From NCBI GenBank assembly GCA_964016885.1, contig OZ024743.1:11222001-11286000 (forward strand): a stretch of DNA of 64,000 nucleotides, written 5' to 3'. The notes beneath the pieces are model-generated. The model had not been told where the DNA came from, did no database searches, and saw only the letters and a list, made by a program, of their open reading frames with translations. Of the stretch, positions 2,962 to 49,976 are shown in pieces. Source of the stretch: Eledone cirrhosa. Lineage: Eukaryota. Positions within the stretch are counted from its first letter, which is position 1, and the number at the start of each line of letters is the position of its first letter. Made by a program: the position numbers and the translations under genes.

Positions 2962-3066
<105 letters not shown>

Positions 3067-3370
3067 TATCTATAACCTCAGGTTTTTACACAAATACAAA
3101 CATGGATACCTATATATGAATTTAATTAACTGCTGTCTCCACACAAGATAAACATTCGACACTATAAGTTCAAACCTTATCACATTTCCATCCGTTTAAA
3201 GTTGTTTATGGTATCTTAGGGCTCCTATGTCCAGCATATCGATTTACTGAAAGAAATGAATGTCACCTATTTCAAATAAATAAAATCTGTATTGTTGACA
3301 ACTTTTAAATTAACTAATTGATTAAATAATTAATATTTCCTGCTCAGGATATATATATATATATATATAA

Positions 3371-8094: not shown

Positions 8095-8203
<109 letters not shown>

Positions 8204-8440
8204 TTCTTTATTAGCCACAGGGGCACAAAAGAAGGGGACAAATACAAAGGGGGAAGTTTACATACAATAAAAACGTGTAAAATGTTATCACAGATGGAAT
8301 TTAAAAGTTAGTCGATTTTCCCCAATAGAGGGAGACAGTTTATATGGGTAACACATACCCCCGAAAAAAAATGTGCAACCCTCATCTCCAGGAGTACGAA
8401 GAGCTTGTACTCCTTTCCTCTCCTCCTCCTTTTCCTCAAC

Positions 8441-11400
8441 CTACAGGCTGATATAGAGAGAAGGCCCATTCACTCGGGCCATTCTCGCCACTTTCACCCA
8501 CCTTTCATAAAACTTGCTGGGGTACAGCACCTCTCTCTCCATCCTGATTCTTCTTCCAAAGTGGTATTTGAAAAAAAGAATCAGTTGTTGGCCGGAGAGA
8601 AAGGTGTCTGACCTCAGCCCTTTCAACCTTGTCCACCATACAACCTCTTTCGCCATAGCTATCACACAAAGGAAAACCGCCTCTCCTTCGTTTTTGAAGG
8701 AGGGTGGCGGTTTGATCATGACAATGGACTCGGTGGTCAACTGGATTGGTCCCACCCGCGACAATAGTCGTTCTACATAGCCCCACAGGTCAGTGACGCC
8801 CGGGCAGTGTATGAATGCGTGCGCGACGGTTTCTTCGTCTCGCACGCACCTCGGACAGATCTTTTTTGCAGGGTCCCTGCCCGGGCGCCCATGTTTGTAG
8901 AGCTTGTCTCGAACTGGTAGAGCTCCTCGGTAGCACTGCCAGGCCAGGGACTTTTGGAAGTTGTCCATCGGTCTCGGGCGGAAGGTCCTACCGAACAGAC
9001 TGGCCAGTTCATCTTCCTCCACGCCTAGAGTTTCACCGAGCGCGTCGTCGCACTTGCTGCGGACCAACCCTCTATAGAATGACGAAGTGGAGTCTCCACT
9101 GATCGCCGGGTCCGCCTGCCAGAGGGCTGTGAGCGCCTGAGCACATTCGATGTGCCAGTCGCCCATTTTCCTCGGTCTCTGCTTGACCCAGGACTGCAGC
9201 TCGGTCAGCGAGACGAGTCGTGGGAAGGCTCGCCTCACGAACGGGGCCCACACCGGTTGTCCGGTGAGGAATACGTAGAGATGCCGCAGCCTGAGCGCGT
9301 GTTTGCGCATCGTCAACCACGGCATCCCCAGCCCTCCGTTAGAAGGGTGTTGGCAGCAGATGGATCTTCTTACCAAAGAAGCCCGCCTCTTCCAAAGGAA
9401 TCGGAAGAGGGCGCGCTCCATTTTGGCGAGCGTTTTGGCTGGACAAGGCACGACGGTCAAGCGGTAGTAGATGGCGGACGCTATAAAAGTGTTCGCCACC
9501 TCCGCTCGACCTTTCAAGGATAGTTTGCACTCGGCCCACTTCTGGGTGAGTGCAAACACCTTGGCCGTCACTTCGTTCCAGTTCTTCTCCACCTGGAGGT
9601 CCGGACCAAACCAGACCCCGAGCAGCTTTACCGGTCCTTCCGTCCAGCGTCCGACGACGCCATCGGAAGGCATCGGTCTGCCTCTCCACGATCCGAGTTG
9701 CAAACCGATGGACTTGTCCCCGTTCAGCTTCGCTCCTGTGAGACTTTCGTATTCCTTTAGTAAGGTGCCGACTTCCTCGATTTGCGAGGCGCTCGACACC
9801 ATTACTGTCACGTCGTCGGCGTAGGCCGACGCCGCTTTCCGCAGTACCGGTTCCAGAGGGATGCCCTGCAATAGCTCCAGCTTCCGCAGTAGTGGCTCGA
9901 GAGTCAGTACGTACAGAAGGGAGGAGAGAGGGCATCCCTGTCGAATGGATCGCGTAATATGGAACGGCTCCGAGAGGTAACCGTTCACCTTGACCCTTGA
10001 GCAGATGTTGCTGTTGTGCATTGCAGCAATCCAGCCCCTGAACACGGGTCCGAAGCCTGCCGCCTCGAGCACCGCATCCAGGTAACGATGGTCAACCCTA
10101 TCGAAAGCCTTAGACTGATCCAAGTTGATCAGGGCCCCACCGAAGCCGGGTTTACACCCTACCCTCTCTATGATGTATCGCATGAGGTGGAGGTTGTCGT
10201 GTATGGACCTGGTCGGGATCGCGCATGTCTGCGCTTCTCCCACCAGGTTCTCGACGACAAGCGCCAGCCTCTTTGCCAACACTTTGGCCAAAATCTGTAA
10301 CTCTGTGTTTAGCAGAGTTATGGGCCGGAAGTTGCCTATGTCATCCCCCTTATTCTCGTCCTTCCTGATTAGTGTGACCACGCCCCCGGTTACAGAACTG
10401 GGAATTCTCCCGTTCTGTTGCCAGTTGCAGTAGACCGCTTCCAGGAGACCGGAGAATAAGTCCGGCATTGCTACGTAAAATTCGTAGGGTAGACCGTCGA
10501 GACCTGGAGATTTGCGTTTGCCGCATTGGCTCAGCGCGTCCCCTATCTCAGTGGCTGAAATCGGCTTTTCGCAGAACTTCGCCTCACTGTCCGAGAGTCG
10601 CGGTAGGCCGTCGAGGTATGGACCGAAATCCATAGCCTCTCCCGGTGCGCCGCTCCCCCCGAACAGCCGAGCAAAGTGCCGCTGAAAAGCCGCACACATC
10701 TGCTTCGGCTCACGTATCACGCGTCCGTTTTGGTCCTTCAAAGACCGAATCGTGGACTTGTTGCCACTTTTTGCCTCCGTCACTCGGGCCCAGCTAACAG
10801 CTTTGGCTACCTCGTTTCCCAGAGCACGTATTTTGCTTCTGACAACGCAGCCTTCGTGCTTTGCGTCGAAGAACTGGTCCAAGGCCGTTCTCGTTGCTAG
10901 CACGCTGGCTACGTTGCCACTTCTAATTGCCTCTTCTACTTTATCTACCAGTTCCTTCTCGGTTCTATTTCTATCTAACGCTAATTCTTTACTAAAAACT
11001 ATCGAGTCTAATCTAACTGCCCTCTTGAGAGAGTACCACCATCTGTTGTTGACAATGGCCCCTGTCAAGTGCTGTTTAACTAAAGTGCTAATCCGTCTAC
11101 TGTAGGCTTTGCTTGTCGGTAACGACAAGTTCAGCTTCCAGTAGCCGGGTCCTTGTCTATGGGTTCTATCAAGGTTGGCCATGCAGGTCACTAGTTTGTG
11201 ATCTGAATAGGCAACCATGAACATTTGTGGACAGCTTAACATGTCCCTATCCTTATTTCTAACTAGAACCCTATCTAGGTACGATCTAGATGTTCCGCTA
11301 CGATTACTCCACGTCCACAGTGGCGCAGTCGGAAAATCTAGTCGATATCTATCGGCCAGGTCAAATCGGTCGATTAACTGTTTGAGGCTGTTACACCCCC

Positions 11401-11878
11401 CTTTTTCGGGACATGCTCCCACATAGTCCCAACGTGCATCTAGGATTCCATTCCAGTCCCCCACTAAAAGCAAGGAGCGGGACGTTCCCAGAAAAGTCTC
11501 TAGACGTTTGAAGAAGTCTGGCCGCGGTGTCCCGGATGGGGCATATGCGGCCACCAGCCTGAAGGCTCCACCTTCACTACCGTCAACGTCTAGGACCACC
11601 AGTCGACCCTCCGGGTCCAGATGTACCGTCTGTGTTACGAGGCCCAGGTGTTTCCGCAGCAAAACGGCAACTCCGCCCCCACCCCCCGGTTGACAGAGAG
11701 ATGCGTAGATCTCAAAGTCATCGAAGATGGGGGCCAGCTGTCGCTCGCCGTGGATCCTGGACTCGCAAATGGCTACCACATCCAAACTGTGCGACCTGAG
11801 GTCGTTTAAGAGTTTGCCCTGTTTCCAGGGCATCCCCAGGCCGCGTACGTTCACACATCCAACTCTTATATTGACTAT
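8441..11878 (-). CDS. ORF2: AP endonuclease, reverse transcriptase and C-terminal zinc finger. No AUG; the homologous start position is ATA.
   Basis: NVRGL, GDWN, SYLDR, YSDH (APE); FRPITLLN, DQSKAFDRV, QGCPLS, YADD (RT); CPRC..ETVAHAFIHC. The frame stays open upstream of the tracked GTG to ACC AAC ATA GTC, matching ACC AAC ATG GCT in copy 2. Confidence 0.92.
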   Translation of the reverse strand: MVNIRVGCVNVRGLGMPWKQGKLLNDLRSHSLDVVAICESRIHGERQLAPIFDDFEIYASLCQPGGGGGVAVLLRKHLGLVTQTVHLDPEGRLVVLDVDGSEGGAFRLVAAYAPSGTPRPDFFKRLETFLGTSRSLLLVGDWNGILDARWDYVGACPEKGGCNSLKQLIDRFDLADRYRLDFPTAPLWTWSNRSGTSRSYLDRVLVRNKDRDMLSCPQMFMVAYSDHKLVTCMANLDRTHRQGPGYWKLNLSLPTSKAYSRRISTLVKQHLTGAIVNNRWWYSLKRAVRLDSIVFSKELALDRNRTEKELVDKVEEAIRSGNVASVLATRTALDQFFDAKHEGCVVRSKIRALGNEVAKAVSWARVTEAKSGNKSTIRSLKDQNGRVIREPKQMCAAFQRHFARLFGGSGAPGEAMDFGPYLDGLPRLSDSEAKFCEKPISATEIGDALSQCGKRKSPGLDGLPYEFYVAMPDLFSGLLEAVYCNWQQNGRIPSSVTGGVVTLIRKDENKGDDIGNFRPITLLNTELQILAKVLAKRLALVVENLVGEAQTCAIPTRSIHDNLHLMRYIIERVGCKPGFGGALINLDQSKAFDRVDHRYLDAVLEAAGFGPVFRGWIAAMHNSNICSRVKVNGYLSEPFHITRSIRQGCPLSSLLYVLTLEPLLRKLELLQGIPLEPVLRKAASAYADDVTVMVSSASQIEEVGTLLKEYESLTGAKLNGDKSIGLQLGSWRGRPMPSDGVVGRWTEGPVKLLGVWFGPDLQVEKNWNEVTAKVFALTQKWAECKLSLKGRAEVANTFIASAIYYRLTVVPCPAKTLAKMERALFRFLWKRRASLVRRSICCQHPSNGGLGMPWLTMRKHALRLRHLYVFLTGQPVWAPFVRRAFPRLVSLTELQSWVKQRPRKMGDWHIECAQALTALWQADPAISGDSTSSFYRGLVRSKCDDALGETLGVEEDELASLFGRTFRPRPMDNFQKSLAWQCYRGALPVRDKLYKHGRPGRDPAKKICPRCVRDEETVAHAFIHCPGVTDLWGYVERLLSRVGPIQLTTESIVMIKPPPSFKNEGEAVFLCVIAMAKEVVWWTRLKGLRSDTFLSGQQLILFFKYHFGRRIRMEREVLYPSKFYERWVKVARMARVNGPSLYISL

Positions 11879-13824
11879 GTTGGTGCTGAAAAGTTAAAAG
11901 AGGAAAAGAGATCACTCACCCTTCGCCTCCTGGGGACCAGGCCGCACGATTTCCATGGGGGTGTTGGAGGGGTTGTCTGGATGGGTGGTGGTTTCCGGCG
12001 GGGTGGGGACGCAGATGTTTGGTGGGGTGGGGTCTGGTGGGATGGGGGTGTCTGGGTGGGGAGGCATTTGAGAAGGACGCGGTTGAGTGGTTTCACGCAG
12101 GAATTCCCCACATCCTTCTCAAATGTTTCTTTTAGGGACCTATAAGTTTGTATAGGGACCCTAATCAGTTTTAGGTTCAGTTTTTTGCTATTTTTTATAG
12201 AGTGGGCGAAAGTTTTCCCTTCGGTGAAAACCGAAGGGTCGTTCGTGATGGTCTCCATTAGTGTTTTGTTTTCAGTGTTTATGTAAGTGTAAGTGTAATT
12301 TTCTTGTGTTGTGTTTGTTTTTGTCTGTAGTTCTTGTGTGTGCTTTCGTTTTGTTGTAGGTATTTTGTTTTCAGGAGGTGGGGGTTTTGTTTGTGATATT
12401 TTTGTTGTTTGTGTTGGTGGTTGTATGTTTGTGGTAGTGTTTGCTGGTTTTTTGCTTTTGTGATGTCTTTTCTTTCTTTTCGAGCGATGGGGTTCTCCCT
12501 CGTCTTCACTGGGTGATGGCGAGATAGCCTCATCTGTTGTATCGTCTGTGTGATTGGGGAGGGGTATGTCTTGGGGAGCTGTTGTGTCTGTATGTGATTT
12601 TGCAGTGGTTTTAGGTGGAGTGGGTTTGGGTGGGACTGTGTTTGTTGTGGTTATTTTTGTGTGTTGGTGTTGTTGTTGTGGTGGTGTTGGTGGTTGTGTT
12701 GTTTTGATGGGTGTCGGCAGAAGAGCCTTTTTTTGGTTCATTAGTTTAGGACAGGAAGCCCTCAGGTGACCCCTGCTAAAGCAATGGTAACATGAAGGCC
12801 GCCTATCCTCAACCGAAAGGTTTATGTAGGTAAGTCCGTCCAGGAGTACACGCTGTGGGATCATAGCTATTCGCTCTGGGCTCATTTGCACCAGAACTTC
12901 AATGCTAGTCCCATTGAATACATCTCTGGGGGACTTGCCTACTGACAGTATTCTGTCTTCATCAAAATTGATGAAGCCGCACAGTATCCACCATATGTTC
13001 ACCTTTGGTGTGACACTTGTGATTCTGATCTTTTGTGTCCTTTTTCCCATGTATGTAGGGAAAAAGGTGTACAGGTTGGATACAATTGGCGACACAGAGT
13101 AATTTTGGGCCGTCAATTGATCCTTCATCAGTACCGAAATACTCCCAAAAAGTTTGCTTCTTTGAATGAATGCAATATCATTCATTGAATCTTTGAAAAC
13201 CAGTTCAATATCTTTCTGTGACAATTGGACTGGTTTTCGGCTAGAATTGGAAACTGTCCTAAAAACTATCGTTTTGAAAGCAGTTTCCTTGCGAATTTCT
13301 ACCGGAGAATTGATGCTGAAAGCACCATTTTTTTCGAAGGTGACATATCTCTTAGCGTCCTTTAAAAGGTGTTCAGCATTTGTTATGTCGAGATATATCA
13401 ATTGTTCTTTCTTTTGAACTTTCTCCGCAAAGGAGATTTTTGGTTTCTTTGTGGAATCCGTATTGGTGGTGTTGTCATTATTGTTGTTATTCTTGTTGTT
13501 ATTCTTGTTGTCACCGATGTTGGTATCATCCGTATTTTCCTTGGTGTTGTTGTTGTCTTTGATGCTGGTGTTATTGGCGTTGTCTTTATTTTTTTCTTTG
13601 TTGTTGTTATCATTGTTGCTTTTATCATCATTATTGGTTTTGCTGTTATTTTTGTTGTCATTGAGCTGTTTGGTGTCATTTGTGTTGTTTGGATGTGAAT
13701 TCGTTTTTTTATTTTCATTTTGTCTTTCCATCTCTATAGTATCTAGTGAAGAAGACGTTGTTGACTGCGAGCTTTGTAGTCTTACCGCCTCTCCACCACC
13801 ATTATCGTTGGACGCAGCGTTCAT
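11875..13824 (-). CDS. ORF1 gag-like nucleic-acid-binding protein, 649 aa
   Basis: CCHC knuckle CYHCFSRGHLRASC, Asn-rich N-terminus, Pro/Thr-rich C-terminal half. It is homologous to ORF1 of the other two full-length copies. Confidence 0.88.
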   Translation of the reverse strand: MNAASNDNGGGEAVRLQSSQSTTSSSLDTIEMERQNENKKTNSHPNNTNDTKQLNDNKNNSKTNNDDKSNNDNNNKEKNKDNANNTSIKDNNNTKENTDDTNIGDNKNNNKNNNNNDNTTNTDSTKKPKISFAEKVQKKEQLIYLDITNAEHLLKDAKRYVTFEKNGAFSINSPVEIRKETAFKTIVFRTVSNSSRKPVQLSQKDIELVFKDSMNDIAFIQRSKLFGSISVLMKDQLTAQNYSVSPIVSNLYTFFPTYMGKRTQKIRITSVTPKVNIWWILCGFINFDEDRILSVGKSPRDVFNGTSIEVLVQMSPERIAMIPQRVLLDGLTYINLSVEDRRPSCYHCFSRGHLRASCPKLMNQKKALLPTPIKTTQPPTPPQQQHQHTKITTTNTVPPKPTPPKTTAKSHTDTTAPQDIPLPNHTDDTTDEAISPSPSEDEGEPHRSKRKKRHHKSKKPANTTTNIQPPTQTTKISQTKPPPPENKIPTTKRKHTQELQTKTNTTQENYTYTYINTENKTLMETITNDPSVFTEGKTFAHSIKNSKKLNLKLIRVPIQTYRSLKETFEKDVGNSCVKPLNRVLLKCLPTQTPPSHQTPPHQTSASPPRRKPPPIQTTPPTPPWKSCGLVPRRRRVSDLFSSFNFSAPT

Positions 13825-14041
13825 AACGTAATCAAAATTTTACAATATTTTTTCCAAGATTCGATGGAGAAAAATTTTTTAAATGGATATTCCGCCCCTG
13901 AAGGGGCGAAAATGAGTTGACCCACCACCTGAAGGTCCAGACGGGTGGTCAAGTTACACAATGATATAAAATTGAACTAAAAACTCACGTTTTTTCCTTA
14001 CATAAATTAACGGAAACTTCTCCGCGAAGTGACACACGACT

Positions 14042-14048
14042 GATAGAG

Positions 14049-14117
<69 letters not shown>

Positions 14118-14120
14118 GAC

Positions 14121-14184
<64 letters not shown>
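14042..14184. repeat. (GATA)n between Tx1 copies 1 and 2
   Basis: Directly visible. Confidence 0.98.
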
Positions 14185-14185
<1 letters not shown>

Positions 14186-14449
14186 TGTTTCTTTTATTTG
14201 CCACCAGGGCATCAAAAGTGGGACAAGTACAATGGGGGGAGTTTACAAAACAAGGCGTCCTCAATAAGGAGGAGGCAATAATAATATATAAAAATAAAAT
14301 AAAATATTACAAAAAATAAAATTTATAACAAAGTCCTCAATAGAGAGGAGGCGCCTTGGGGGGTCGCACACACCCCCGAAAAAAGTGTGCAACCCTTCTC
14401 CTCAGGAGCACAGAGAAGGGGTGCTCCCTTGGTCTTTCATCTTCTTCAC

Positions 14450-17400
14450 CTATAGTCTGATGTAGAGTGAAGGCCCATTCACACGGGTCATTCTCGCCAC
14501 TTTCACCCATCTTTCATAGAAACGGCTGGGGTGCAGCACCTCTCTCTCCATCCTGATCCTTCTTCCGAAATGATATCGGAAGAAACGGACCAGTTGTTGG
14601 CCAGAGAGAAAGGTGTCTGACCTCAGTCCTTTCAGACGCGTCCACCATACAACCTCTTTCGCCATGGCTATTACGCACAGAAACACCGCCTCTCCTTCGT
14701 TTTTGAAGAGGGGAGGCGGCTTGATCGTTACAATAGACTCGGTGGTCAACCGGATCGGTCCCACCCTTGACAGCAGTTGTTCGACATAGTCCCACAAATC
14801 GGCAATGCCCGAGCAGTGTACCAATGCGTGTGCAACGGTTTCCTCGTCGCACACGCATCTGGGACAGATCTTTTTCGATGGGTCCCTACCCGGGCGCCCG
14901 TGTCTGTATAGCCTTTCTCGAACGGGCAGAGCCCTTCTGTAGCATTGCCAGGTCAGGGACCTCTGGAAGTTATCCATGAGTCCCGGGCTGAATGTCCTAC
15001 CGAACAGGTTGTCCAGTTCGTCTTCCTCCATGCCTAGGGCTTCTCCGAGGGCGTCGTCGCACCTGCTAACCACCAGCCCTCTATAGAATGACGAGGTGGA
15101 TTCTCCACCGACAGCCTGTCCGCCTGCCAGAGAGCCGTGAGCGCCTGGGCACACTCAGTGTGCCAGGCGCCCAGTTTTCTCGGTCTTTGCTTGACCCAGG
15201 ATTGCAGCTCGATGAGTGAGACGAGTCTGGGGAAGGCTCGCCTCAGAAACGGGGCCCACACTGGTTGACCGGAGAGGAATACCTGAAGGTGCCGTAGCCT
15301 TAATGCGTGTTTACGTATCATTAGCCACGGCATCCCCAGCCCTCCTTTCGAAGGGTGTTGACAGCAGATGGATCTCCTCACCATAGGAGCCCGCTTTTTC
15401 CAAAGGAATTGGAAGAGTGCGCGCTCCATTTTGGCGAGCGTTTCCCTTGGGCAAGGCACAACGGTCAGGCGGTAGTAGATGACGGACGCTATATAAGTGT
15501 TCGCCACCTCCGCCCGACCTTTCAGGGACAGTTTGCACTCGGCCCACTTCTGGGTCAGTGAAAACACCCTGTTCGTCACCTCACCCCAGTTCTTCTCCAC
15601 CTGGAGGTCTGGTCCGAACCAGACCCCGAGCAACTTCACCGGGCCCTCCGTCCAGCGCCCGACGACGCCATCGGAGGGCATCGATCTGCCCCTCCACGTG
15701 CCGAGTTGCAGACCGATCGACTTGTCCCGGTTCAGCTTAGCCCCTGTAAACCTTTCGTACTCCTCCAGTAAGGTGCCGATCGCCCCGATTTCCGAGGCCG
15801 TCGACACCATTACTGTTACGTCATCGGCGTAGGCTGACACCGCTTTCCGCAATCCCGGTTCCAACGGGATGCCCTGCAACAACTCCAACTTCCGCAGCAG
15901 TGGCTCTAGAGTCATTACATACAGAAGGGAGTAGAGAGGGCACCCCTGTCGGATGGACCGCGCGATTTCGAACGGCTCCGAGAGGTAGCCGTTCACCTTG
16001 ACCCTAGAGCAGATGCGGCTGCTGTGCATGGCATTGATCCAGCCCCTGAAAACGGGTCCGAAGCCTGCCGCCGCTAGCACCGGATACAGGTAACCATGGT
16101 CAACCCTATCGAATGCCTTAGATTGATCCAAGTTGATCAGGGCCCCACCAAAGCCGGGTTCGTTCCCAACTCTCTCTATGATGTATCGCATGAGGTGGAG
16201 GTTATCGTGGATGGACCTGGACGGGATAGCACATGTCTGCTCATCTCCCACCAGGTTGCCCACGACAAGCGCCAACCTCTTTGCTAGCACCTTGGCCAAA
16301 ATCTGTAACTCTGTATTTAGCAGAGTTATGGGCCTGAAATTATTTATATCGTCCCCCTTGTTCTCGTCCTTCCTCACTAGCGTGACTACGCCCTTGGTCA
16401 CAGCACAGGGAATTCTCCCGTTCTGTTGCCAGTTGCAGTAGACCGCCTCGAGGAGATCGGGGAACAAGTTCGGCATAGCTAGATATAGTTCGTATGGAAG
16501 ACCATCGAGACCCGGGGGTTTGCGTTTGCCGCATTAGCTCAGCACGTCCTCTATCTCAGCGGCTGAAATCGGCTCCTCGCAGGACTTCGCCTCCCTGTCC
16601 GAGAGACGCGGCAGGCCGTCGAGGTATGGACCGAAGTCCACGTCCCCAACTGGCCCCCCGCCCCCGCCCCCTCCGAACAATCCGGCAAAGTGCTTTTGAA
16701 AAGCCTCGCACATCTGCTTAGGTTCAAGGATCACCCGTCCATCCTGGTCTCGAAAAGACCGGATAGTGGATCTGCTCCCTCTTTTGGCTTCTGTCACGCG
16801 GGCCCAGCTAACAGCTTTGGTCCCCTCGTTTCCCAGAGCACGTATTTTGCTTCGGACGATGCAGCCTTCGTGTTTCGCGTCGAAGAACTGGCCCAGGGCC
16901 GTTCTCGACGCTAGCACTCTAGCCACGTGGCCGCTTCTAATTGCCTCTTCTACACTATCTACCAACTCCCTTTCCTTCCTATTTCTATTGGAGGCTAACT
17001 CCTTACTAAATTCTATAGAGACTACTCTAATCTCTCTTTTGAGAGGTCCCCACCACCTGCTGTTGACGATGGCGCCCGTCAACCGCTCCCTAACTAAGGT
17101 GCTAATCCGGTCCCTGTAAGCCTTACTTGCCGGTAAGGACAAGTTGAGCTTCCAGTAACCGGGTCCCTGTCTATGAGTTCTGTCAAGGTTGATCATGCAG
17201 GTCACTAACTTGTGGTCTGAATAGCCAACCATGCGCATTTTTGGACAACTTAAAAAGTCCTTATCCTTAATTCTAACTAAGAACCTATCTAGGTACGACC
17301 TAGATGATCCGCTACGATTTGCCCAAGTCCAGGTTGGTGCAGTCGGAAAATCTAGTCGATATCTATCGGCGAGGTCAAATCGACCGATTAACCCTTTGAG

Positions 17401-17892
17401 GCTATTACACCCCTCTCTATCGGGACAGGCCCCTACGTAGTCCCAGCGTGCATCTAGGATACCATTCCAGTCCCCCACTAATAGCAAGGAGCGGGACGTC
17501 CCTAGAAAAGTCTCCAGACGATGGAAGAAGTCCGGCCGCATTGACCCGAAAGGGCCGTAGGCGGCTACCAACCTAAACGCTCCGCCTTTACCACTGCCAA
17601 GGTCCAGAACCACTAGTCGACCCTCCGGGTCCAAATGTACCATCTGTGTTGCGAGACCCAGATATTTTTGCAGCAGAACGACAACTCCACCCCCACCTCC
17701 GGGCTGACAGAGAGATGCGTGCATCTCAAAGTCATCAAAGGTAGGGGCCAGCTGTCGCACGTTGCTGATCCGAGCCTCACAAATAACCATCACATCTATA
17801 CGTTGTGACCTGAGGGCATTTAGAAGCATTGCTTGCTTCCAAGTTGAGCCCAGGCCACGCGCATTTAAACAGCCTACTCTTAGCATAGCCAT
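14450..17892 (-). pseudogene. ORF2 (APE-RT-ZnF) with one nonsense codon (16534-16536) and one frameshift (about 15115)
   Basis: ORF pieces 16534-17916, 15034-16476 and 14450-15154 align end to end with copy 1 ORF2. AGC TAA TGC replaces AGC CAA TGC. Confidence 0.88.
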
Positions 17893-19698
17893 GTTGGTGG
17901 TGAAGAGAAAAGGCACTTACCTCTCTGCGTCCCGGGTATCGGGCTGCACAATTTCCATTAGGGTGGGGGTGGGTTGTTGGGTGGGGTGGTGGTTTGTGGA
18001 AGTGTAGGGGCATCAGTGTGTTGTGTGGTTGGGGAGCTTGGAGTTGTGTGGGTGTTTGGGGAGGGGGTGGGGTAGTTTTTTTTAGGAGGACGCGGTTAAT
18101 GGGCCCGACGCAGGGGGGACCCACGTCCTCTTTAAAATTGTTTTTTAAAGTTTTATAGGTGTCCTGTGGGGCCTTAATCATTTTGAGGTGGGGGAAATCC
18201 CCTGCCTGGGTGAAGTTAGGCCCTTGTGTTTTTATTAGATTGTTGTTGTACACAATGTTTAACAGTTTTTTTGTTTCTTGTGTTTATGTATGTGTATGCA
18301 TGTTTTTGTTTTTGTGTGGTGTTTTTTGTTTGCTGTTGTTGTGAGCTCTTTTGTGTTGGTGTCAGTGTTATGTTTTGGGGAGGGGTTGTTTTCATTTGTG
18401 TGTCTGAGGTGTGTTTTCTTTTTTTTCTTTTGATTGTGTGGAAGTGCTCCTCCTCGTCTGACGACGAACTAGGGTCATCTTCCGCGTTGAAGGGGAGGGG
18501 TATATTTTCGGGTTGTGTTTGCGGTGCCGGGTGTTTTGGAAATTGTTTTTGTTTTTTGAGTGGAGGGGATGGGTTGGACATTGTTTTGTTTTGGTTTGAG
18601 CTGTGGTGGTTGTTTTTGTAGTGGTAGTTGTGGTGATTGTGTTGGTTGTGCAGTTGTTGGTGGTGTAGGCAGGATTGGGGTTTTCTTATTAAATTGGGGA
18701 CAGACAGCCCTCAGGTGACCTCTGGTTCCGCAGAGGTAACACGAGGGCCGTCTACCCTCAACGGTAATGTTGATGAAGGTTAGATCATCCAGTATGACGC
18801 GTTCAGGGATCTGGGCGATCCTTTCGGGCCTCATTTGAACTACAAGTTCGAGGCTCGTTCCACTGAACGCGTCACCCGATGCCTTTCCCATGGACACCAG
18901 CATGTCATCCTCCAGGTCCAGGAAACCTGTCAAAACCCACCATATGTCCATAATCGGCAGGATGGTGTGGATTTTTATTTTTTGTGTTCTTCTACCCATG
19001 TACGTAGGGTAGAAGGTGTATGCGGTGGATGTGATTGGTTTGATGGACAGTTTCACTGCTGTGTCCCTGTCCTTCATGAGAATGGATAGACTCCCGTAGA
19101 GTCTATCCTTCTGAATGAAGGTGGTGTCCTTCATGACGTCTTTTAAAACCAGCTCTATCTCACTCTGTGATGGTTGAGCTGGTTTTTTACTTTTATTTGA
19201 GATTGTCCTAAACATGACCGTGTTTAGGAGTCTCTGGCTTTTTAGTTCCGGGGGGGGGGGGGGGGAATGGATTGTGAATGAACCATTTTCTCCGTACACT
19301 ATATATTTTTTCGCATCTGCCAGTAGCTCCTTCGCTTTGGTTATATCTACTGGCAGATAGTCGAGGGTTTTCCTTGTCGTCTCGGCGAAGGAGAAATTTT
19401 GTTTGTTTGTGTTGTTGTCGTTGGTGGTGTTGTTGTTATCATTGTTGTTGTTGTCACAGTTATTGGTCTTGTTGTTGTTGTTATTGTTATTGGTGTTGTT
19501 TTCGTCCGTCGCATTGTTGTTGTTGGTGCCGCTGGTTGTTGCCATGGCAACGTCAAGTTGTCGGTTAACAGGTGGAGAGAATTCTTCCTCTGGCTGACCT
19601 TTCTTCTTGACCTCTGCTACTGTGACAGTGGCAGGGGGAAGCTGTAAGTTTATCTTCCCCTTTCCTCCTTTGAATTTTGGTGAAGAAGCTTCGGCCAT
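17777..19698 (-). pseudogene. ORF1 with two frameshifts (about 18590 and 18250)
   Basis: Pieces 18475-19728, 18216-18581 and 17777-18253 match copy 1 ORF1 (CYLCGTRGHLRAVC, YTYINT, PINRVLLK). Assembly indel errors cannot be excluded. Confidence 0.82.
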
Positions 19699-19920
19699 TT
19701 TAAAAAATATTGACTTTTCAACAAGCAAAAAACTTCTTTTTTTTTTTGTTTAACTATTTCGCCTAAAGGCGTAGAATATTTTGAGAGACTGACCAGATCA
19801 AAGTTTGACCTGGCAGTCCCTCTACAAAATGGTACAAAAATGAAAGTTCACAGTTTACAATTTCCGGATGAATTTAAACAAAACTTACCGAGCGAGCTCA
19901 GCACATGTGTCCATCGTAAA

Positions 19921-27768: not shown

Positions 27769-30298
27769 GATTTCATTTATTGGCCACAAGGGCCGACATA
27801 TAGGGGACAATACAAAAGACTGGGACAGTGGGGTTTTACAGAAAAATCGAGTAAACAATATGAATCACAATAACAAAGTAACAATAACAAAGTAACAATA
27901 AAGTAACAAGAAAATTACAAGAAGAAAAAATTCCCCAATAGGGGGGATGACCACCTAGGGTTCGCTCAGGTACCCCACCAGTCCTGAACGACCCGACGCT
28001 TCGAGAGCACCCTGGAAGGGCACCCCTCTCCTCTTCAAATTTACCTACCTACAGCCGCATGACCAGAGTAGGCCCACTCACACGAGCCATTCTCGCCACA
28101 TTCACCCACCTTTCAGCAAATGTACTGGGGGGCAGCACTTCTCTCTCCACCCTCACCTTCCTTTCCAAGTGAAACTTGAAAAAGTTGATGAGGGATTGGC
28201 CGAAGAGAAAAGTGTCTGTCTTCAGTCCTTTCAACCTCGTCCACCATACAAGCTCTTTCGCTACTGCCACAAGACAGAAGAAAATTGCCTGCCCTTCCTG
28301 GCCAAAAGAAGGCAGCGGGTCGATCTTCACTATGGACTCGGCCGATAGCCGGATCCGTTCTACACGCGACAACAGCTGTTCAACATAACTCCACAAGTCA
28401 GTAATGCACGGACACTGAACGAGTGCGTGCAGAACGGTTTCGTCGCTCTGCGCGCATCTCGGGCAGGTCCGTCTGACAGCACTTCCGTGCCTGTAGAGTT
28501 TATCTCATACCGGCAGTGCCCTCCGGTAGCACTGCCAAGCGAGGGATTAGTGGAAATTATCCATCGTCCCCGGCTCGAAAGTCCTCGGGTACAGACTGGT
28601 TAGTTCGACTTCGTTGACTCCCAGAGCCTCTCCGAGTGCGTCGTCGCACTTGCCCACCACTAATCCTCTATAGAACTCGAGAGTGGAAGTTCCACTGACC
28701 GCATTGCCCGCCTGGTAGAGGGCAGTGAGTGCCTGGCAACATTCCAGATGCCAGTCACCCAGTCTCGGTCTCTTCTTGACCCAGGACTGCAACTCAGTCA
28801 AAGAAACAAGCTGCGGAAAGGCCCGTCTGACAAACGGCGACCACACCTGTTCACCGTTTAGGCAGAATATCTGGAGATGCCGCAGCCTCAGCGCGTGCCT
28901 GCGCATCATTAGCCACGGCATGCCCAGCCCTCCCCGTAGAGGGTGCTGGCAGCAGATGGACCGCCTCACCAGCGGAACCTGACCCCTCCACAAGAATTTG
29001 AAGAGGAGCCGCTCCAAGATGGCGAGGCGCGAGCGGGGGCAAGGGACGACAGTCAGACGGTAGTAGATGACGGACGCGATGTACGCGTTCGCCACCTCCG
29101 CCCGACCTTTCAGTGATAGCTTCATCCCAGCCCATTTCTGAGTGAGACTGACTACCCTGCCCGTCACCTCGTCCCAATTCTTATCCACCTGGAGGTCTGG
29201 CCCGAACCAAACCCCTAGCAACTTTACCGGTCCGTCCGTCCAGCGCCTAACGACGCTGTTGGACGGCATGGACTTGCCTCTTTAGGTGCCGAGTTGCAAG
29301 CCTACTGACTTTTCCGGGTTAAGTTTTGCTCCCGTCAACCTTTCATATTCCTCCAATAAGGTGCCGACCACCTCGATTTCTGAGGTGTTCGACACCATCA
29401 CGGTGATGTCGTCCGCATAAGCCGACACAGCCTTTCCGCGTCCCGGTTCGTGCGGATGCCCTGCAACAGCTCCAGCTTCCGCAGTAAAGGCTCGAGAGTC
29501 AATACGTACAGAAGGGAGGAGAGAGGGCACCCTTGACGGACCGATCGGGAGACCTGAAACGGTTCTGAGAGGTGGCCATTAATTTTGACCATCGAGCAGG
29601 TGCCGCTGTGCATTGCAGCGATCTTCTGAAGACGGGGCCGAAGCCAGCCGCCTTGATGACAGCCTCCAGGTACCGATGGTCGACCCTATCGAATGCTTTC
29701 GATTGATCTAAATTGATCAGAGCCCCACCGAAGCCAGGTTTACACCCTACCCTCTCTATGATGTATCGCAAGTTTGCGCCTCCCCAACCAAATCCCCGAC
29801 GACAAGCGCCAACCTCTTCGCTAACACCCTGGCCAAAATCTTAAACTCTGTGTTGAGCAGAGTTATGGGCCTGAAATTGTCTAATGCGTCCCTCTTGTTC
29901 TCGTCTTTCCTTATCAGCGTCACTACGCCCCGGCTCACAGAACTGGGAATACTCCCGTTTGTGCTGCAAGTTGCAGTAGAGGGCTTCGAGGAGATTGGAG
30001 AACAAGTCTGGCATATTTACGTAAAGCTCATAGGGCAGACCATCCAAACCGGGTGACTTGCGCCTCATGCAGCCGACAAGGGCATCCTGAATCTCGGCTG
30101 AAGTAATTGGCCTTTCGCAGCGCCCAGCGTCAGCCGTCGAGAGTTGCGGCAAGCCATCGAAGTAGGGACTTTCCCCTTCACGGGGCAAAGTCTAAGGGCT
30201 TATATCTCTTACACAACAAGAAATATTTAACAACAAATAATTTTAACAGACAAATAAAGCGACTTACTGGGAGCGAGCAAAATACGTGCGCTTAGACC
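27769..30298 (-). mobile_element. Internally deleted Tx1-like element, copy 3, with (AAT)n on both sides
   Basis: 3' UTR and RT/ZnF pieces (28049-30166, several frameshifts) are joined directly to about 130 nt resembling the family 5' UTR (GCTCGCTC..GTAAGT, hairpin). ORF1 and the endonuclease are missing. Confidence 0.85.
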
Positions 30299-30328
<30 letters not shown>

Positions 30329-30329
<1 letters not shown>

Positions 30330-30710
30330 TATTTTTTTCCCTACAGGGGCGTCGGATAAAGAGGATATTGCAAAGACTGCTTACATAAAGTGTAGGGGGT
30401 CTACATAGAAATCGAATGAGATATAAAAGTGTGTACATAGTATATAAATATAGAATGCAATCCTCATATTATTAGAGGACCTTTTGCTAAGGTCATTTGA
30501 AGGACTCATTACATTCAGTGTCACACTGATCAACATTGGTCATGCTGGTGTTAAGCTTTCCCTTTTCGCTATTTTCACCTACCTTTTGAAACATTTACTG
30601 GAGGGAGAGCATCCTCTCTCTACCCTTACTTCCTTTTACGAGAGGTCAATGAGATTTTGTCTTCATTCCTTTCAGCTCACCCACTACTCAACCTCTTTCC
30701 TCTGTTAGAA
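30329..30710 (-). mobile_element. Old, decayed Tx1-like 3' fragment, copy 4
   Basis: attttcacctaccttttgaaacatttactggagggagagcatcctctctctaccctt aligns with acattcacccaccttttagcaaatgtactggggggcagcacttctctctccaccctc in the 52582 ORF. It abuts (AAT)n. Confidence 0.65.
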
Positions 30711-31054: not shown

Positions 31055-31057
<3 letters not shown>

Positions 31058-32543
31058 TTAAAACAAAAACAAAAACAATCACGAAGGGTGCAGTACAAAG
31101 TGTTAGTATTAGGTTCACGCTTAAGAGTGGGGGGTAGGGGACGACGTTTTAGGGATAAGCCCTTCATCAGGAGAAAAGTGGGAAAGAAAAGAGATCCGAG
31201 AGTGGGAGGGGGAGTGGTGGAAAGACATTAAAAGGGAGGGAAATTTAAAGGGAAGGGAAAAAATTAAAAAGAGGGTAAAAAAATTAAAATGAAACAAGTG
31301 GTGAAAGGGTGTGAGAGGTGTAGGGGTGGTGGTAGGTGGATGGAAGGAAGCAGGGGGTCCGAGCGGGGGAAGGCGGAAGGTGGTATATGTGTATGTGTGT
31401 AGGTGTGCGTGTGTGTGTGTGTATGTGTGGATGTGATTGTGAGAGTTTGGGGAAGAACAAGGTTCCATATTCGGATAATAGGAAAACTAGTGTGAACATG
31501 CGGTGGGGTGTGAGTCAGTGTGTATGTGCGTGTGGATAGAGAGGGGTCAGAGGGGGTGGGGAGAGGGGGACCTGCGGAGTTCGGAGGCTGAGTATGTGTC
31601 TGTGAGGATACGCACGTGTGTGTTTTTGTGTGGTGTGGATACGTGGGAACGTATGGTTGCGTGTGTGCGAAAATAGTGTAAGGGTTTGTGTGTGTTCCTG
31701 AATGTTTTACCGGTGAGTGTATGGAGAGATGGAGAAAAATCCGAGTATAAGAAGGTGGATGTCTAGAGCGTGTGACCAGTGGTGTAGCATCCGTGCAATG
31801 GTGCAGAGGAAGTAGAGAGTTGTGGGGTGCGCGCCCAACAGGAAGTGGTCAAGAAGGTCAAGGCAGGGTGGAAAGGGCAGGGCGAAGGATGCGAGAGAAA
31901 GGAGATAGCAGTGAGGAGGATGACAGACAGGCGAGTGGTAGGGATGGTCTGTATGTGTGTGTGGTTGGGGGTTAGTGGTGGTAGTGTGGATGTGGGGTGG
32001 GTGGTGTATCGGTGTGTACGTGGGTGTGGGTTAGTGTATGTATGCTGGTGTGTGTTCGTGTGTGTGTGGTGATGGGGAAGGTGGGTTTGGGGGATGTTTA
32101 GTATTGGTGGTCGGATGTGGATGTGTGGATGGGGTAAATGGTGATAATAGGGTGTGTGAATAGTGTGGATGAGTGTATATATGTACTGGTGTGTGTGTGC
32201 GTGTTGAGGGTGTGGGTGCGCGTATGATAGGGGGGATGTTAGTATAATTGGTTGTGGGGTGGCTGGAAGTGGAGGGGATGGTGAATCTTGGGAGCGTTTT
32301 AGTGGTGTTAGTAGGGGGTATGTGTAGGGGAGGGGGACGGTCGAAGGTTAAAGGAAGAAGGGTGGGGAGTTCAGGTCAGGGGAGGGGGATCTGTAGGGTG
32401 AAGATGGTGTGTTGTTCGGCCCTAAGGCGAGTTGTGGGGGTTCCATGGCATTCGATCAGGCCACAGACGATGAGGTTGTTGGCGAAGTGTCCAGGGGAAC
32501 CAAAGTGGCGGGCGATGGGGGAACTCCCGCCCAGACGAATATC
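31055..32543 (-). mobile_element. 5'-truncated Penelope-like element: GIY-YIG C-terminus, long low-complexity 3' region and degenerate hammerhead
   Basis: Minus strand 32543-32379 reads DIRLGGSSPIARHFGSPGHFANNLIVCGLIECHGTPTTRLRAEQHTIFTL. 31140-31172 reads CTGATGA-agggcttatccct-AAAA-cgtcgtc. Flanked by TA-rich microsatellites. Confidence 0.7.
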
Positions 32544-32549
32544 TATCTA

Positions 32550-32581
<32 letters not shown>

Positions 32582-38735: not shown

Positions 38736-41700
38736 TTGTTTCATTGGTTTAGACTGGCTCTCTCCATGTGTGAGTACCGTTGTTTCATTGGTTTAGACTG
38801 GCTCTCTCTCCATGTGTGAGTACCGTTGTTTCATTGGTTTAGTCTGGCTCTCTCTCCATGTGTGAGTACCGTTGTTTCATTGGTTTAGTCTGGCTCTCTC
38901 TCCATGTGTGAGTACCGTTGTTTCATTGGTTTAGTCAGGCTCTCTCCATGTGTGAGTACCGTTGTTTCATTGGTTTAGACTGGCTCTCTCTCCATGTGTG
39001 AGTACCGTTGTTTCATTGGTTTAGTCTGGCTCTCTCTCCATGTGTGAGTACCGTTGTTTCATTGGTTTAGTCTGGCTCTCTCTCCATGTGTGAGTACCGC
39101 TGTTTCATTGGTTTAGTCTGGCTCTCTCTCCGTGTGTGAGTACCGTTGTTTCATTGGTTTAGTCTGGCTCTCTCTCCATGTGTGAGTACCGTTGTTTCAT
39201 TGGTTTAGTCTGGCTCTCTCTCCGTGTGTGAGTACCGTTGTTTCATTGATTTAGTATGACTCTCTCTCCGTGTGTGAGTACCGTTGTTTCATTGGTTTAG
39301 TCAGGCTCTCTCCATGTGTGAGTACCGTTGTTTCATTGGTTTAGTCTGGCTCTCTCCATGTGTGAGTACCATTGTTTCATTGGTTTAGACTGGCTCTCTC
39401 TCCATGTGTGAGTACCGTTGTTTCATTGGTTTAGTCTGGCTCTCTCTCCATGTGTGAGAACCGTTGTTTCATTGGTTTAGTCTGGCTCTCTCTCCATGTG
39501 TGAGGACCGTTGTTTCATTGGTTTAGTATGGCTCTCTCTCCATGTGTGAGTACCGTTGTTTCATTGGTTTAGTCTGGCTCTCTCTCCATGTGTGAGTACC
39601 GTTGTTTCATTGGTTTAGTCTGGCTATCTCTCCATGTGTGAGTACCGTTGTTTCATTGGTTTAGTCTGGCTCTCTCTCCATGTGTGAGGACCGTTGTTTC
39701 ATTGGTTTAGTATGGCTCTCTCTCCGTGTGTGAGTACCGTTGTTTCATTGGTTTAGTCAGGCTCTCTCCATGTGTGAGTACCATTGTTTCATTGGTTTAG
39801 ACTGGCTCTCTCTCCATGTGTGAGTACCGTTGTTTCATTGGTTTAGACTGGCTCTCTCCATGTGTGAGTACCATTGTTTCATTGGTTTAGACTGGCTCTC
39901 TCTCCATGTGTGAGTACCGTTGTTTCATTGGTTTAGTCTGGCTCTCTCTCCATGTGTGAGGACCGTTGTTTCATTGGTTTAGTATGGCTCTCTCTCCGTG
40001 TGTGAGTACCGTTGTTTCATTGGTTTAGTCAGGCTCTCTCCATGTGTGAGTACCATTGTTTCATTGGTTTAGACTGGCTCTCTCTCCATGTGTGAGTACC
40101 GTTGTTTCATTGGTTTAGACTGGCTCTCTCCATGTGTGAGTACCATTGTTTCATTGGTTTAGACTGGCTCTCTCTCCATGTGTGAGTACCGTTGTTTCAT
40201 TGGTTTAGTCTGGCTCTCTCTCCATGTGTGAGTAACGTTGTTTCATTGGTTTAGTCTGGCTCTCTCTCCATGTGTGAGTACCGTTGTTTCATTGGTTTAG
40301 TCTGGCTCTCTCTCCATGTGTGAGTACCGTTGTTTCATTGGTTTAGTCTGGCTCTCTCTCCATGTGTGATTAACGTTGTTTCATTGGTTTAGTCTGGCTC
40401 TCTCTCCATGTGTGATTAACGTTGTTTCATTGGTTTAGACTGGCTCTCTCTCCATGTGTGATTAACGTTGTTTCATTGGTTTAGTCTGGCTCTCTCTCCA
40501 TGTGTGAGTACCGTTGTTTCATTGGTTTAGTCTGGCTCTCTCTCCATGTGTGATTAACGTTGTTTCATTGGTTTAGTCTGGCTCTCTCTCCATGTGTGAT
40601 TAACGTTGTTTCATTGGTTTAGTCTGGCTCTCTCCATGTGTGAGTACCGTTGTTTCATTGGTTTAGTCTGGCTCTCTCTCCGTGTGTGATTAACGTTGTT
40701 TCATTGGTTTAGTCTGGCTCTCTCTCCATGTGTGATTAACGTTGTTTCATTGGTTTAGTCTGGCTCTCTCTCCATGTGTGAGTACCGTTGTTTCATTGGT
40801 TTAGTCTGGCTCTCTCTCCATGTGTGATTAACGTTGTTTCATTGGTTTAGTCTGGCTCTCTCTCCATGTGTGATTAACGTTGTTTCATTGGTTTAGACTG
40901 GCTCTCTCTCCATGTGTGAGTACCGTTGTTTCATTGGTTTAGACTGGCTCTCTCTCCATGTGTGAGGACCGTTGTTTCATTGGTTTAGTCTGGCTTTCTC
41001 TCCATGTGTGAGTACCGTTGTTTCATTGGTTTAGTCAGGCTCTCTCCATGTGTGAGTACCGTTGTTTCATTGGTTTAGTCTGGCTCTCTCCATGTGTGAG
41101 TACCGTTGTTTCATTGGTTTAGACTGGCTCTCTCCATGTGTGAGTAACGTTGTTTCATTGGTTTAGACTGGCTCTCTCCATGTGTCAGTAACGTTGTTTC
41201 ATTTGTTTAGACTGGCTCTCTCTCCATGTGTGAGTACCGTTGTTTCATTGGTTTAGTCTGGCTCTCTCTCCATGTGTCAGTAACGTTGTTTCATTGGTTT
41301 AGTCAGGCTCTCTCTGTGTGTGAGTACCGTTGTTTCATTGGTTTAGTCAGGCTCTCTCTCCATGTGTGAGTACCGTTGTTTCATTGGTTTAGTCTGGCTC
41401 TCTCCATGTGTGAGTACCGTTGTTTCATTGGTTTAGTCTGGCTCTCTCCATGTGTGAGTACCGTTGTTTCATTGGTTTAGTCTGGCTCTCTCTCCATGTG
41501 TGAGTACCGTTGTTTCATTGGTTTAGACTGGCTCTCTCACCGTGTGTGAGTACCGTTGTTTCATTGGTTTAGACTGGCTCTCTCTCCATGGGTGAGTACC
41601 GTTGTTTCATTGGTTTAGACTGGCTCTCTCTCCATGTGTGAGTACCGTTGTTTCATTGGTTTAGACTGGCTCTCTCCATGCGTGAGTAACGTTGTTTCAT

Positions 41701-43205
41701 TGGTTTAGTCTGGCTCTCTCTCCATGTGTGAGTACCGTTGTTTCATTGGTTTAGTCTGGCTCTCTCTCCATGTGTCAGTAACGTTGTTTCATTGGTTTAG
41801 TCTGGCTCTCTCTCCATGTGTCAGTAACGTTGTTTCATTGGTTTAGACTGGCTCTCTCCATGTGTGAGTACCGTTGTTTCATTGGTCTAGACTGGCTCTC
41901 TCTCCATGTGTGAGTACCGTTGTTTCATTGGTCTAGACTGGCTCTCTCCGTGTGTGAGTAACGTTGTTTCATTGGTTTAGACTGGCTCTCTCCATGTGTG
42001 AGTAACGTTGTTTCATTGGTTTAGACTGGCTCTCTCCATGTGTGATTAACGTTGTTTCATTGGTTTAGACTGGCTCTCTCTCCATGTGTGAATACCGTTG
42101 TTTCATTGGTTTAGTCTGGCTCTCTCCATGTGTGAGTAACGTTGTTTCATTGGTTTAGTCTGGCTCTCTCCATGTGTGAGTAACGTTGTTTCATTGGTTT
42201 AGACTGGCTCTCTCCATGTGTGAGTAATGTTGTTTCATTGGTTTAGACTGGCTCTCTCCATGTGTGAGTAACGTTGTTTCATTGGTTTAGACTGGCTCTC
42301 TCTCCATGTGTGAGTACCGTTGTTTCATTGGTTTAGTCTGGCTCTCTCCATGTGTGAGTAACGTTGTTTCATTGGTTTAGTCTGGCTCTCTCCATGTGTG
42401 AGTAACGTTGTTTCATTGGTTTAGACTGGCTCTCTCCATGTGTGAGTAACGTTGTTTCATTGGTTTAGACTGGCTCTCTCTCCATGTGTGAGTACCGTTG
42501 TTTCATTGGTTTAGTCTGGCTCTCTCCATGTGTGAGTAACGTTGTTTCATTGGTTTAGTCTGGCTCTCTCCATGTGTGAGTAACGTTGTTTCATTGGTTT
42601 AGACTGGCTCTCTCCATGTGTGAGTAACGTTGTTTCATTGGTTTAGACTGGCTCTCTCTCCATGTGTGAGTAACGTTGTTTCATTGGTTTAGTCTGGCTC
42701 TCTCCATGTGTGAGTAACGTTGTTTCATTGGTTTAGTCTGGCTCTCTCCATGTGTGAGTAACGTTGTTTCATTGGTTTAGACTGGCTCTCTCCATGTGTG
42801 AGTAACGTTGTTTCATTGGTTTAGACTGGCTCTCTCCATGTGTGAGTAACGTTGTTTCATTGGTTTAGACTGGCTCTCTCTCCATGTGTGAGTACCGTTG
42901 TTTCATTGGTTTAGTCTGGCTCTCTCCATGTGTGAGTAACGTTGTTTCATTGGTTTAGTCTGGCTCTCTCCATGTGTGAGTAACGTTGTTTCATTGGTTT
43001 AGACTGGCTCTCTCCATGTGTGAGTAACGTTGTTTCATTGGTTTAGACTGGCTCTCTCCATGTGTGAGTAACGTTGTTTCATTGGTTTAGACTGGCTCTC
43101 TCCATGTGTGAGTAACGTTGTTTCATTGGTTTAGACTGGCTCTCTCCATGTGTGAGTAACGTTGTTTCATTGGTTTAGACTGGCTCTCTCCATGTGTGAG
43201 TACCG
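38736..43205. repeat. Satellite array of roughly 100 units of 44/46 bp
   Basis: Unit gttgtttcattggtttag(a/t)ctggctctc(tc)tccatgtgtgagta(c/a)c. Successive starts at 38779 and 38825. Confidence 0.98.
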
Positions 43206-44354: not shown

Positions 44355-44566
44355 ATAATGATTTCTACTATAGCCAAAAGGCAAGCAGCCTCGGGGGAAG
44401 GGAAAGTCAATTAAATCGACCCCAGTGCATCACTGGTGCTTCATTTTATCGACCCCGTAAGGATGAAAGGCAAAGCAAACCTCAGTGGGATGTGGACTCA
44501 GAATGTAAAGGCTCGTAACTAGATGCTGCAAAGCGTGGCATCCGACACTCTACTCATATTGCCAAT
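44355..44566 (-). mobile_element. SINE family A copy
   Basis: aatcgaccccagt..tttatcgaccccgtaaggatgaaaggcaaag shared with the other copies. Confidence 0.75.
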
Positions 44567-44655
44567 AAAGATATAAATTTTAAAAATTCAAACGTTTTTA
44601 AATTGCCAAAAAATGTTAGAATTGTTTATCTGTTTATCGTAAATCTATGTTGTTT

Positions 44656-45827
44656 ACCTCATATCAACATCGTACACACAATCAGCACCTATATCATATA
44701 CAACCCACTAAACATACCTCATAACAACAACACCGTACACACAATCAGCACCTATATCATATACAACCCACTAAACATACCTCATAACAACATCGTACAC
44801 ACAATCAGCACCTACATCATATACAACCCACTAAACATACCTCATAACAACAACACCGTACACACAATCAGCACCTACATCATATACAACCCACTAAACA
44901 TACCTCATAACAACATCGTACACACAATCAGCACCTACATCATATACAACCCACTAAACATACCTCATAACAACAACACCGTACACACAATCAGCACCTA
45001 CATCATATACAACCCACTAAACATACCTCATATCAACATCGTACACACAATCAGCACCTACATCATATACAACCCACTAAACATACCTCATATCAACATC
45101 GTACACACAATCAGCACCTACATCATATACAACCCACTAAACATACCTCATATCAACAACATCGTACACACAATCAGCACCTACATCATATACAACCCAC
45201 TAAACATACCTCATAACAACAACATCGTACACACAATCACCACCTACATCATATACAACCCACTAAACATACCTCATATCAACATCGTACACACAATCAG
45301 CACCTACATCATATACAACCCACTAAACATACCTCATATCAACATCGTACACACAATCAGCACCTACATCATATACAACCCACTAAACATACCTCATAAC
45401 AACAACATCGTACACACAATCAGCACCTACATCATATACAACCCACTAAACATACCTCATATCAACATCGTACACACAATCAGCACCTACATCATATACA
45501 ACCCACTAAACATACCTCATAACAACAACATCGTACACACAATCAGCACCTACATCATATACAACCCACTAAACATACCTCATATCAACAACATCGTACA
45601 CACAATCAGCACCTACATCATATACAACCCACTAAACATACCTCATATCAACATCGTACACACAATCAGCACCTACATCATATACAACCCACTAAACATA
45701 CCTCATAACAACAACATCGTACACACAATCACCACCCACATCATATACAACCCACTAAACATACCTCATAACAACATCGTACACACAATCACCACCCACA
45801 TCATATACAACCCACTAAACATACCTA
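44656..45827. repeat. Minisatellite of 19 units of 60/63 bp
   Basis: Unit cctcat(atc/aac)aac(aac)atcgtacacacaatcagcacctacatcatatacaacccactaaacata. Units counted from the translated repeat. Confidence 0.97.
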
Positions 45828-46219: not shown

Positions 46220-46262
<43 letters not shown>

Positions 46263-49941: not shown

Positions 49942-49976
49942 GTTTAAAATAGAGTGGAAAAGATGGGAAAGACCAC

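Follow-up and report, generated by a model that had tools for sequence, protein, structure and literature searches.

The window analysed here is a stretch of 64,000 nucleotides (nt) from the genome of Eledone cirrhosa (assembly GCA_964016885.1, contig OZ024743.1, positions 11,222,001 to 11,286,000 of the forward strand). It contains five recognisable copies (1, 2, 3, 5 and 6) of a long interspersed nuclear element (LINE), which are 71–82% identical over the region of their second open reading frame (ORF); all of these copies, and all of their features described below, are on the minus strand. By sequence they are LINEs of the L1/Tx1 type with microsatellite tails, and our subject is a motif resembling a 5′ splice site (donor), here called D1, at the border between ORF1 and ORF2, and its possible use in removing ORF2 from a share of the transcripts. 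Copy 2 (14186–19920) is a decayed full-length element whose tail adjoins copy 1, copy 3 (27769–30298) is without ORF1 and the endonuclease, copy 5 (46261–52287) alone combines two open ORFs with an ATG for ORF2, and copy 6 (52300–53361) is a 5′-truncated ORF2 end with its 3′ untranslated region (UTR), its tail adjoining copy 5. Besides these copies there is a decayed LINE 3′ end near 30330–30700.

In copy 1, ORF2 (8441–11893; 1150 aa) encodes endonuclease, reverse transcriptase (RT) and zf-RVT domains; PF03372, PF00078 and PF13966 were found in ORF2 of copies 1 and 5, and human L1 ORF2p is the closest solved structure among the best PDB matches (E 1.5e-52). ORF1 of copy 1 (11875–13824) has no Pfam match; a CCHC knuckle is visible in its sequence and its C-terminus is disordered, and Atlas feature matches to zf-CCHC and ZCCHC3-like clusters (0.90–0.93) are a lead only. 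ORF2 begins with ATA in copy 1 (11878–11876), where copies 2 and 5 have ATG. The frame in which ORF1 reaches D1 is ambiguous in copies 1 and 2, as two compensating single-base offsets preserve phase 0, yet the MEIV frame looks coding. Four contig runs of unknown library type were compared with copy 1, and some of their contigs have an extra base at 12053 (40 of the 1224 variant rows were listed). The tails are L1-like, with a simple repeat after AATAAA (8131–8212 in copy 1) and with 5′-truncated copies present; the repeat is (TATC)n in copies 1 and 2 and (ATT)n in copies 3, 5 and 6.

A donor motif at the border of ORF1 and ORF2

The motif G/GTRAGT (the slash marking the would-be splice position) is located 31–41 nt upstream of the ORF2 start in all three of copies 1, 2 and 5. 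It reads G/GTGAGT in copy 1 (11914–11919, GT at 11919), AG/GTAAGT in copy 2 (17915–17920, GT at 17920) and CG/GTAAGT in copy 5 (49975–49980, GT at 49980), where the ORF1 stop TAA is inside the motif. It is the single sense-strand match in copies 1 (5.8 kb) and 5 (6.0 kb) and one of two in copy 2, and with a chance probability of about 0.6–0.7% per copy for a match in a 60-nt window, D1 is as a sequence motif well supported and beyond chance. A pyrimidine tract (69–85%) follows D1 in all three copies; the 85% tract of copy 1, together with an AG shortly before ORF2, occupies 11886–11911, and this AG is the top-ranked one of copy 1 and is not common to copies 2 and 5.

A related LINE with 41% ORF2 identity (hereafter the relative) is present as tandem arrays on eukaryotic contigs that were binned into a bacterial metagenome-assembled genome (MAG; G001), and no relative of the element was found among the viral contigs searched. 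The contigs concerned (C3–C19; L081–L119, L122 and L124) amount to more than 400 kb of LINE arrays and represent host contamination of the MAG. The arrays have a period of about 6.4–6.9 kb, include several subfamilies and mostly intact ORFs, and are unusual in their organization.

Of the 68 units of the relative, 65 have G/GTAAGT behind the ORF1 stop, the hexamer being invariant and the +7 and +8 positions variable; D1 is here just 7 nt before the ORF2 ATG and has no pyrimidine tract. A quick tree unites the window and G001 families in a single clade (SH-aLRT, an approximate likelihood ratio test, 100), at a distance of about 1.8 substitutions per site from each other. At 20 distant L1-like junctions G/GTRAG is absent throughout, and GTRAG without the leading G occurs at four. 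Because the donor is present in the window and relative families and absent from these distant junctions, it is both lineage-specific and conserved, and judged by its sequence it would be a real splice signal. One sister family (L114 and L149) has no junction donor and a TAATG stop-start overlap, but keeps a donor 40 nt past the ORF2 stop.

The motif might have no role in RNA processing at all, G-TRA-GT being a stop-codon or reinitiation context in which the match to a donor is incidental. The TRA of the motif is the ORF1 stop in copy 5, a stop of the ORF2 frame in copy 2 and the relative, and the ORF2 stop itself in six relative units; copies 2 and 5 and the relative also have their own ORF2 ATG. 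A stop codon accounts, however, for only three of the seven bases, the TGA of copy 1 is in neither ORF frame, and a second donor described below is usually 14 or 40 nt past the true stop with GTRAGT still kept, and we regard an incidental match as improbable.

The pyrimidine tracts invite a further possibility, that of a mini-intron running from D1 to an AG 42–55 nt downstream and fusing ORF1 to ORF2; the donor of copy 5 is in phase 2, as is an AG within codon 5 of ORF2. The phases disagree across copies, though, and the relative, with D1 after a stop and close to the ATG, lacks the tract. Introns of 42–55 nt are also very short for animals, and such an arrangement seems very improbable. In copy 1 the best-scoring acceptor (11886) is located 8 nt upstream of the ATA at 11878, and the copy 1 subfamily could conceivably make an RNA with ORF2 alone or a fused one.

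Acceptor candidates

The original prediction had D1 spliced to the AG within the stop codon of ORF2 (8441–8443 in copy 1), which would remove exactly ORF2 and leave an ORF1-only mRNA, and it considered this acceptor weaker evidence than the donor. ORF2 does end in TAG/G at 8441, 14450, 28049 and 52582. Copy 5 was correctly said to end in TAA (46524–46522) with a substitute AG shortly after (46516–46515), the first exon base then being 46514, one off the 46515 that was given. TAG/G is present in four of the five window copies and in 54 of 64 relative units, as against 1 of 24 distant elements, and a TAG/A variant occurs in one contig run (X5). Since the four TAG/G are inherited copies and not independent events, the acceptor is not shown beyond chance, and in this it is indeed the weaker of the two signals.

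Scores give a similarly mixed picture. On a home-made pyrimidine/YAG index the stop-codon AG ranks 7 of 371 in copy 1 (8441), 37 of 370 in copy 2 (14450), 17 of 159 in copy 3 (28049) and 8 of 62 in copy 6 (52582), and it is twelfth among the 98 AG columns common to the copies; the substitute AG of copy 5, the only intact copy, ranks 112 of 443. Before the stop, 13 of the 24 free codon positions hold pyrimidines, as compared with 40–47% in the ORF2 body, which is no clear excess. Copies 1 and 2 have a rival CAG 7 nt upstream of the stop AG, and inspection by eye showed no branch point in common upstream of the ORF2 stop. The TAG of the relative is not homologous in place and stands in a hairpin loop; its rank is 73 of 370, six units have TCG in its stead, and its use would keep an exon of only 14 nt before the second donor.

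The codon counts made by hand for the joined frame were reproduced, with 50 codons in copy 1 and 15 in copy 2 (both phase 0), and copy 5 gives 70 (phase 2); the figure of 50 presupposes one reading of ORF1, whose frame is ambiguous in copy 1 as in copy 2. If ORF1 instead ends in the MEIV frame, the join meets a stop at once in copy 1 (phase 1) and copy 2 (phase 2), which would favor the stop-codon acceptor. The argument from reading through I-G-E fails, as this is not a protein signal: the tripeptide derives from a 3′UTR hairpin (8319–8334 in copy 1) present in all five 3′UTRs, and copy 2 keeps the hairpin stem but has GAC for GAA/GGA, so that a conserved peptide was rejected. Nor is a joint from 11920 to 8440 among those listed for the contig runs, and on the whole we consider the ORF2 stop codon unlikely to be the acceptor. 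Excision of ORF2 to give an ORF1-only mRNA nevertheless gains support from the wide conservation of the donor and from the layout of the relative.

This layout includes a second donor, D2. All 64 units have a GTRAGT at –8 to +40 nt relative to the ORF2 stop, mostly 14 or 40 nt beyond it, with +3 alternating between A and G. The remainder of the 3′UTR (424–469 nt from stop to AATAAA) has no further G/GTRAGT, and a single homologous pyrimidine-TAG site 236–263 nt downstream of D2 is the best 3′UTR AG in 60 of the 64 units, providing a candidate acceptor whose use would remove the enzyme-coding part. Both donors of the relative are less than 50 nt from a stop, which suits the rule of 50–55 nt of nonsense-mediated decay (NMD), as given in PMC5896957, if that rule applies here to used junctions. 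With D2 after the ORF2 stop in all units and a homologous acceptor-like site in most, two alternative donors sharing one 3′UTR acceptor would be a simple reading of the relative, and one that fits better than a stop-codon acceptor. The AG/GT at the window ORF2 stops (AG/GTAGGT in copy 3) may accordingly be a decayed second donor and not an acceptor.

In the window family the acceptor candidates are a site at 9072 within ORF2, non-homologous 3′UTR AGs such as 46346 in copy 5, or the stop codon. The 9072 site, TTCTATAG/AGG (9069–9079), is invariant in all five copies and at 11 nt is their longest invariant run; by a rough estimate chance alone would yield about one run of this kind, so it is not significant, and the relative does not preserve it.

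Splicing, U1 docking and known systems

The reading we prefer, with a probability of about 0.32, is that D1 is a real 5′ splice site and that a share of the transcripts loses most or all of ORF2, yielding a monocistronic ORF1 mRNA, probably through an acceptor other than the ORF2 stop. That ORF2 is spliced out by way of any acceptor at all, the stop codon included, is a proposition just short of even odds. The U1 small nuclear RNA (snRNA) would bind D1 and splicing would proceed from it; in the relative both donors would compete for the single 3′UTR acceptor, with use of the first dropping ORF2. Unspliced RNA would remain the retrotransposition template and the source of ORF2p, and the short mRNA would raise the ratio of ORF1p to ORF2p.

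A different role for the same motifs would be to recruit U1 without splicing, in the 5′UTR, between the ORFs and, for the relative, past ORF2 as well; U1 docked there would sustain elongation by polymerase II, block early 3′-end formation or retain the RNA in the nucleus. Each element has two or three non-coding places with a donor-like site followed by a U-rich tract, and both kinds of effect have precedents: U1 is described as repressing premature termination in EVD (PMC5580714), and intact 5′ splice site motifs are reported to cause nuclear retention (PMC11629677). ORF2 downstream of D1, however, has no sense AATAAA or ATTAAA in any of four elements, leaving little for a non-splicing U1 to protect; this absence is not below shuffles, and in synonymous shuffles neither donors nor poly(A) signals were depleted in ORF2. 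A fitting acceptor also follows D2 in the relative, and D2 hugs the stop although the 3′UTR is about 450 nt long. We hold U1 docking to be possible, if on the doubtful side.

The 5′UTR sites can be seen in all four copies with a 5′ end, where a donor-like GTRAG is placed 30–55 nt from the end (13988/14002, 19888, 30267 and 52257 in copies 1, 2, 3 and 5) with U-rich DNA after it; the copy 1 site, D0, covers 13983–13988. High-ranking AGs are located 91 nt (13898, copy 1) and 67 nt (19822, copy 2) past this donor, making a 5′UTR intron possible, and the 5′UTRs of copies 1, 3 and 5 each have a short G/C hairpin-like inverted repeat, noted by eye (13892–13912, 30170–30186 and about 52125–52140). 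In copy 3 an intact 5′ end of about 130 nt (30298–30168) is joined to ORF2 near codon 424, with the breakpoint (30170–30168) on an AG; copy 5 has the same AG at that place after TTT, and the parent 5′UTR is outside the window. Copy 3 may have arisen as a spliced retrocopy, or else by a microhomology deletion.

Several observations weigh against splicing out of ORF2. The donor-like motifs in the 5′UTRs of all four window copies and in 52 of 52 relative matches (a count that is not de-duplicated and leaves out the sister family) fit generic U1 docking. No acceptor is conserved across the five window 3′UTRs, and the best antisense columns (1.34 and 1.31) beat the best sense column (1.18) on the acceptor score, which consequently has little power either way and cannot pick the acceptor. 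The three of 68 G001 units without D1, those with the TAATG overlap, are one sister family, and the remaining G001 units are near-identical array members that count as few independent events.

Spliced copies were likewise not seen. All 68 relative ORF1 ends continue into ORF2, the putative intron is retained in all 64 relative 3′UTRs examined, and no joint from 11920 to the 3′ end is among those listed for the four contig runs (15 of 321 joints and 12 of 47 extra rows); the precise ORF2-less genomic copies that the original prediction proposed to look for are therefore absent from these two sets, which is also what U1 docking would lead one to expect. One run (X1) has 37,838 contigs on copy 1, the contig depth is biased to the 3′ end as with truncated genomic copies, and the listed X1 joints reach down to a depth of 12–33, whereas the donor has a depth of about 29,000. 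If the rows are ranked by support, an amplified form without ORF2 is unlikely, but single copies could be hidden. A joint at 8392–8460 was considered as a splice and rejected, as it fits a microhomology deletion. The absence of ORF2-less copies is weak evidence, since an RNA with ORF1 alone would supply no ORF2p, and the proteins of L1 are described as preferring their own RNA (PMC5860796).

Splicing out of ORF2 would resemble what is described for Drosophila copia, with its intron of ~3 kb, and for the shGAG RNA of Arabidopsis EVD (PMC5580714), in which a donor towards the 3′ end of the structural ORF and an intron retained in the genomic RNA give a short structural-protein mRNA, as predicted here. 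Copies 1, 2 and 5 of the window and 65 of 68 relative units carry a conserved donor where the structural ORF ends. The two systems differ in that copia and EVD are long terminal repeat (LTR) elements with one polyprotein and a demonstrated spliced RNA, whereas splicing of the LINE is a prediction, and in that EVD couples splicing to premature termination (PMC5580714), whereas ORF1 of the LINE already has its own stop. Membership of Ty1/copia was considered and rejected, as this is a two-ORF LINE with an endonuclease-RT and a simple-repeat tail; the comparison concerns only how the element may work.

Among LINEs, the spliced integrated retrotransposed elements (SpIREs) of human L1 (PMC5860796) also involve splice sites within the element, functional in human L1, and 5′UTR donors, and copy 3 may be a similar spliced retrocopy. 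The human SpIREs described there use 5′UTR donors and are dead ends, whereas the window donor stands where ORF1 and ORF2 meet and persists over the distance separating the two families. Reinitiation models exist for the translation of LINE ORF2. The excess of ORF1p over ORF2p is usually attributed to ORF2 being translated inefficiently on a single bicistronic RNA (PMC3894237). A clade of invertebrate L1/Tx1 LINEs might follow a copia-like plan. The donors at its ORF ends would then vie for an acceptor further downstream, and a single promoter would supply unspliced genomic RNA, an mRNA for both ORFs and another for ORF1 alone, with splicing determining how much ORF1p is made relative to ORF2p; we give this somewhat less than an even chance.

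If selection maintains the border donor, the spliceosome, or U1 at the least, would be part of how a LINE lineage expresses its genes, and the lineage would do more than just suffer cryptic sites. If it serves only for U1 docking, it is still a conserved regulatory signal, for which no LINE description was found in the literature searched, mostly listings. Nor did that literature yield a report of a conserved donor at LINE ORF ends, and Repbase-type family descriptions may already note such sites.

Microsatellite context and other features

Copies 1, 2, 3 and 5 have the same microsatellite on both flanks (four copies in one window only), with (ATT)n on either side of copy 5. The elements are stacked head to tail, each starting right after the microsatellite tail of another (14042–14185 between copies 2 and 1, 30299–30329 between copies 4 and 3, and 52288–52306 between copies 6 and 5), and this arrangement suggests microsatellite targeting. 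Kibi, Koshi and the crocodilian microsatellite-targeting Tx1 elements are described (PMC4494074) as similar two-ORF elements with an APE endonuclease, RT and zf-RVT and with copies in microsatellites; the window elements differ from them in their repeat units, (TATC)n and (ATT)n. The repeats of the host seem octopus-like. Recently active L1-Tx1 families are listed for O. vulgaris in a table of PMC13282606.

A distant L1/Tx1-like element in L120 is positioned between a full U1 snRNA gene and a 5′-altered U1 copy (3036–3199 and 9961–10137), and may target U1 gene arrays. Elsewhere in the window are a 46-nt satellite with 99 copies (38736–43205) and a 123-nt satellite with 9.5 copies (44655–45826), the latter giving rise to a 437-aa open frame at 44519–45832. 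A 1.5-kb C/A-rich stretch between (AT)n repeats (31056–32580, minus strand) has no ORF1 or ORF2 match and is possibly the 3′ part of an unrelated retroelement.

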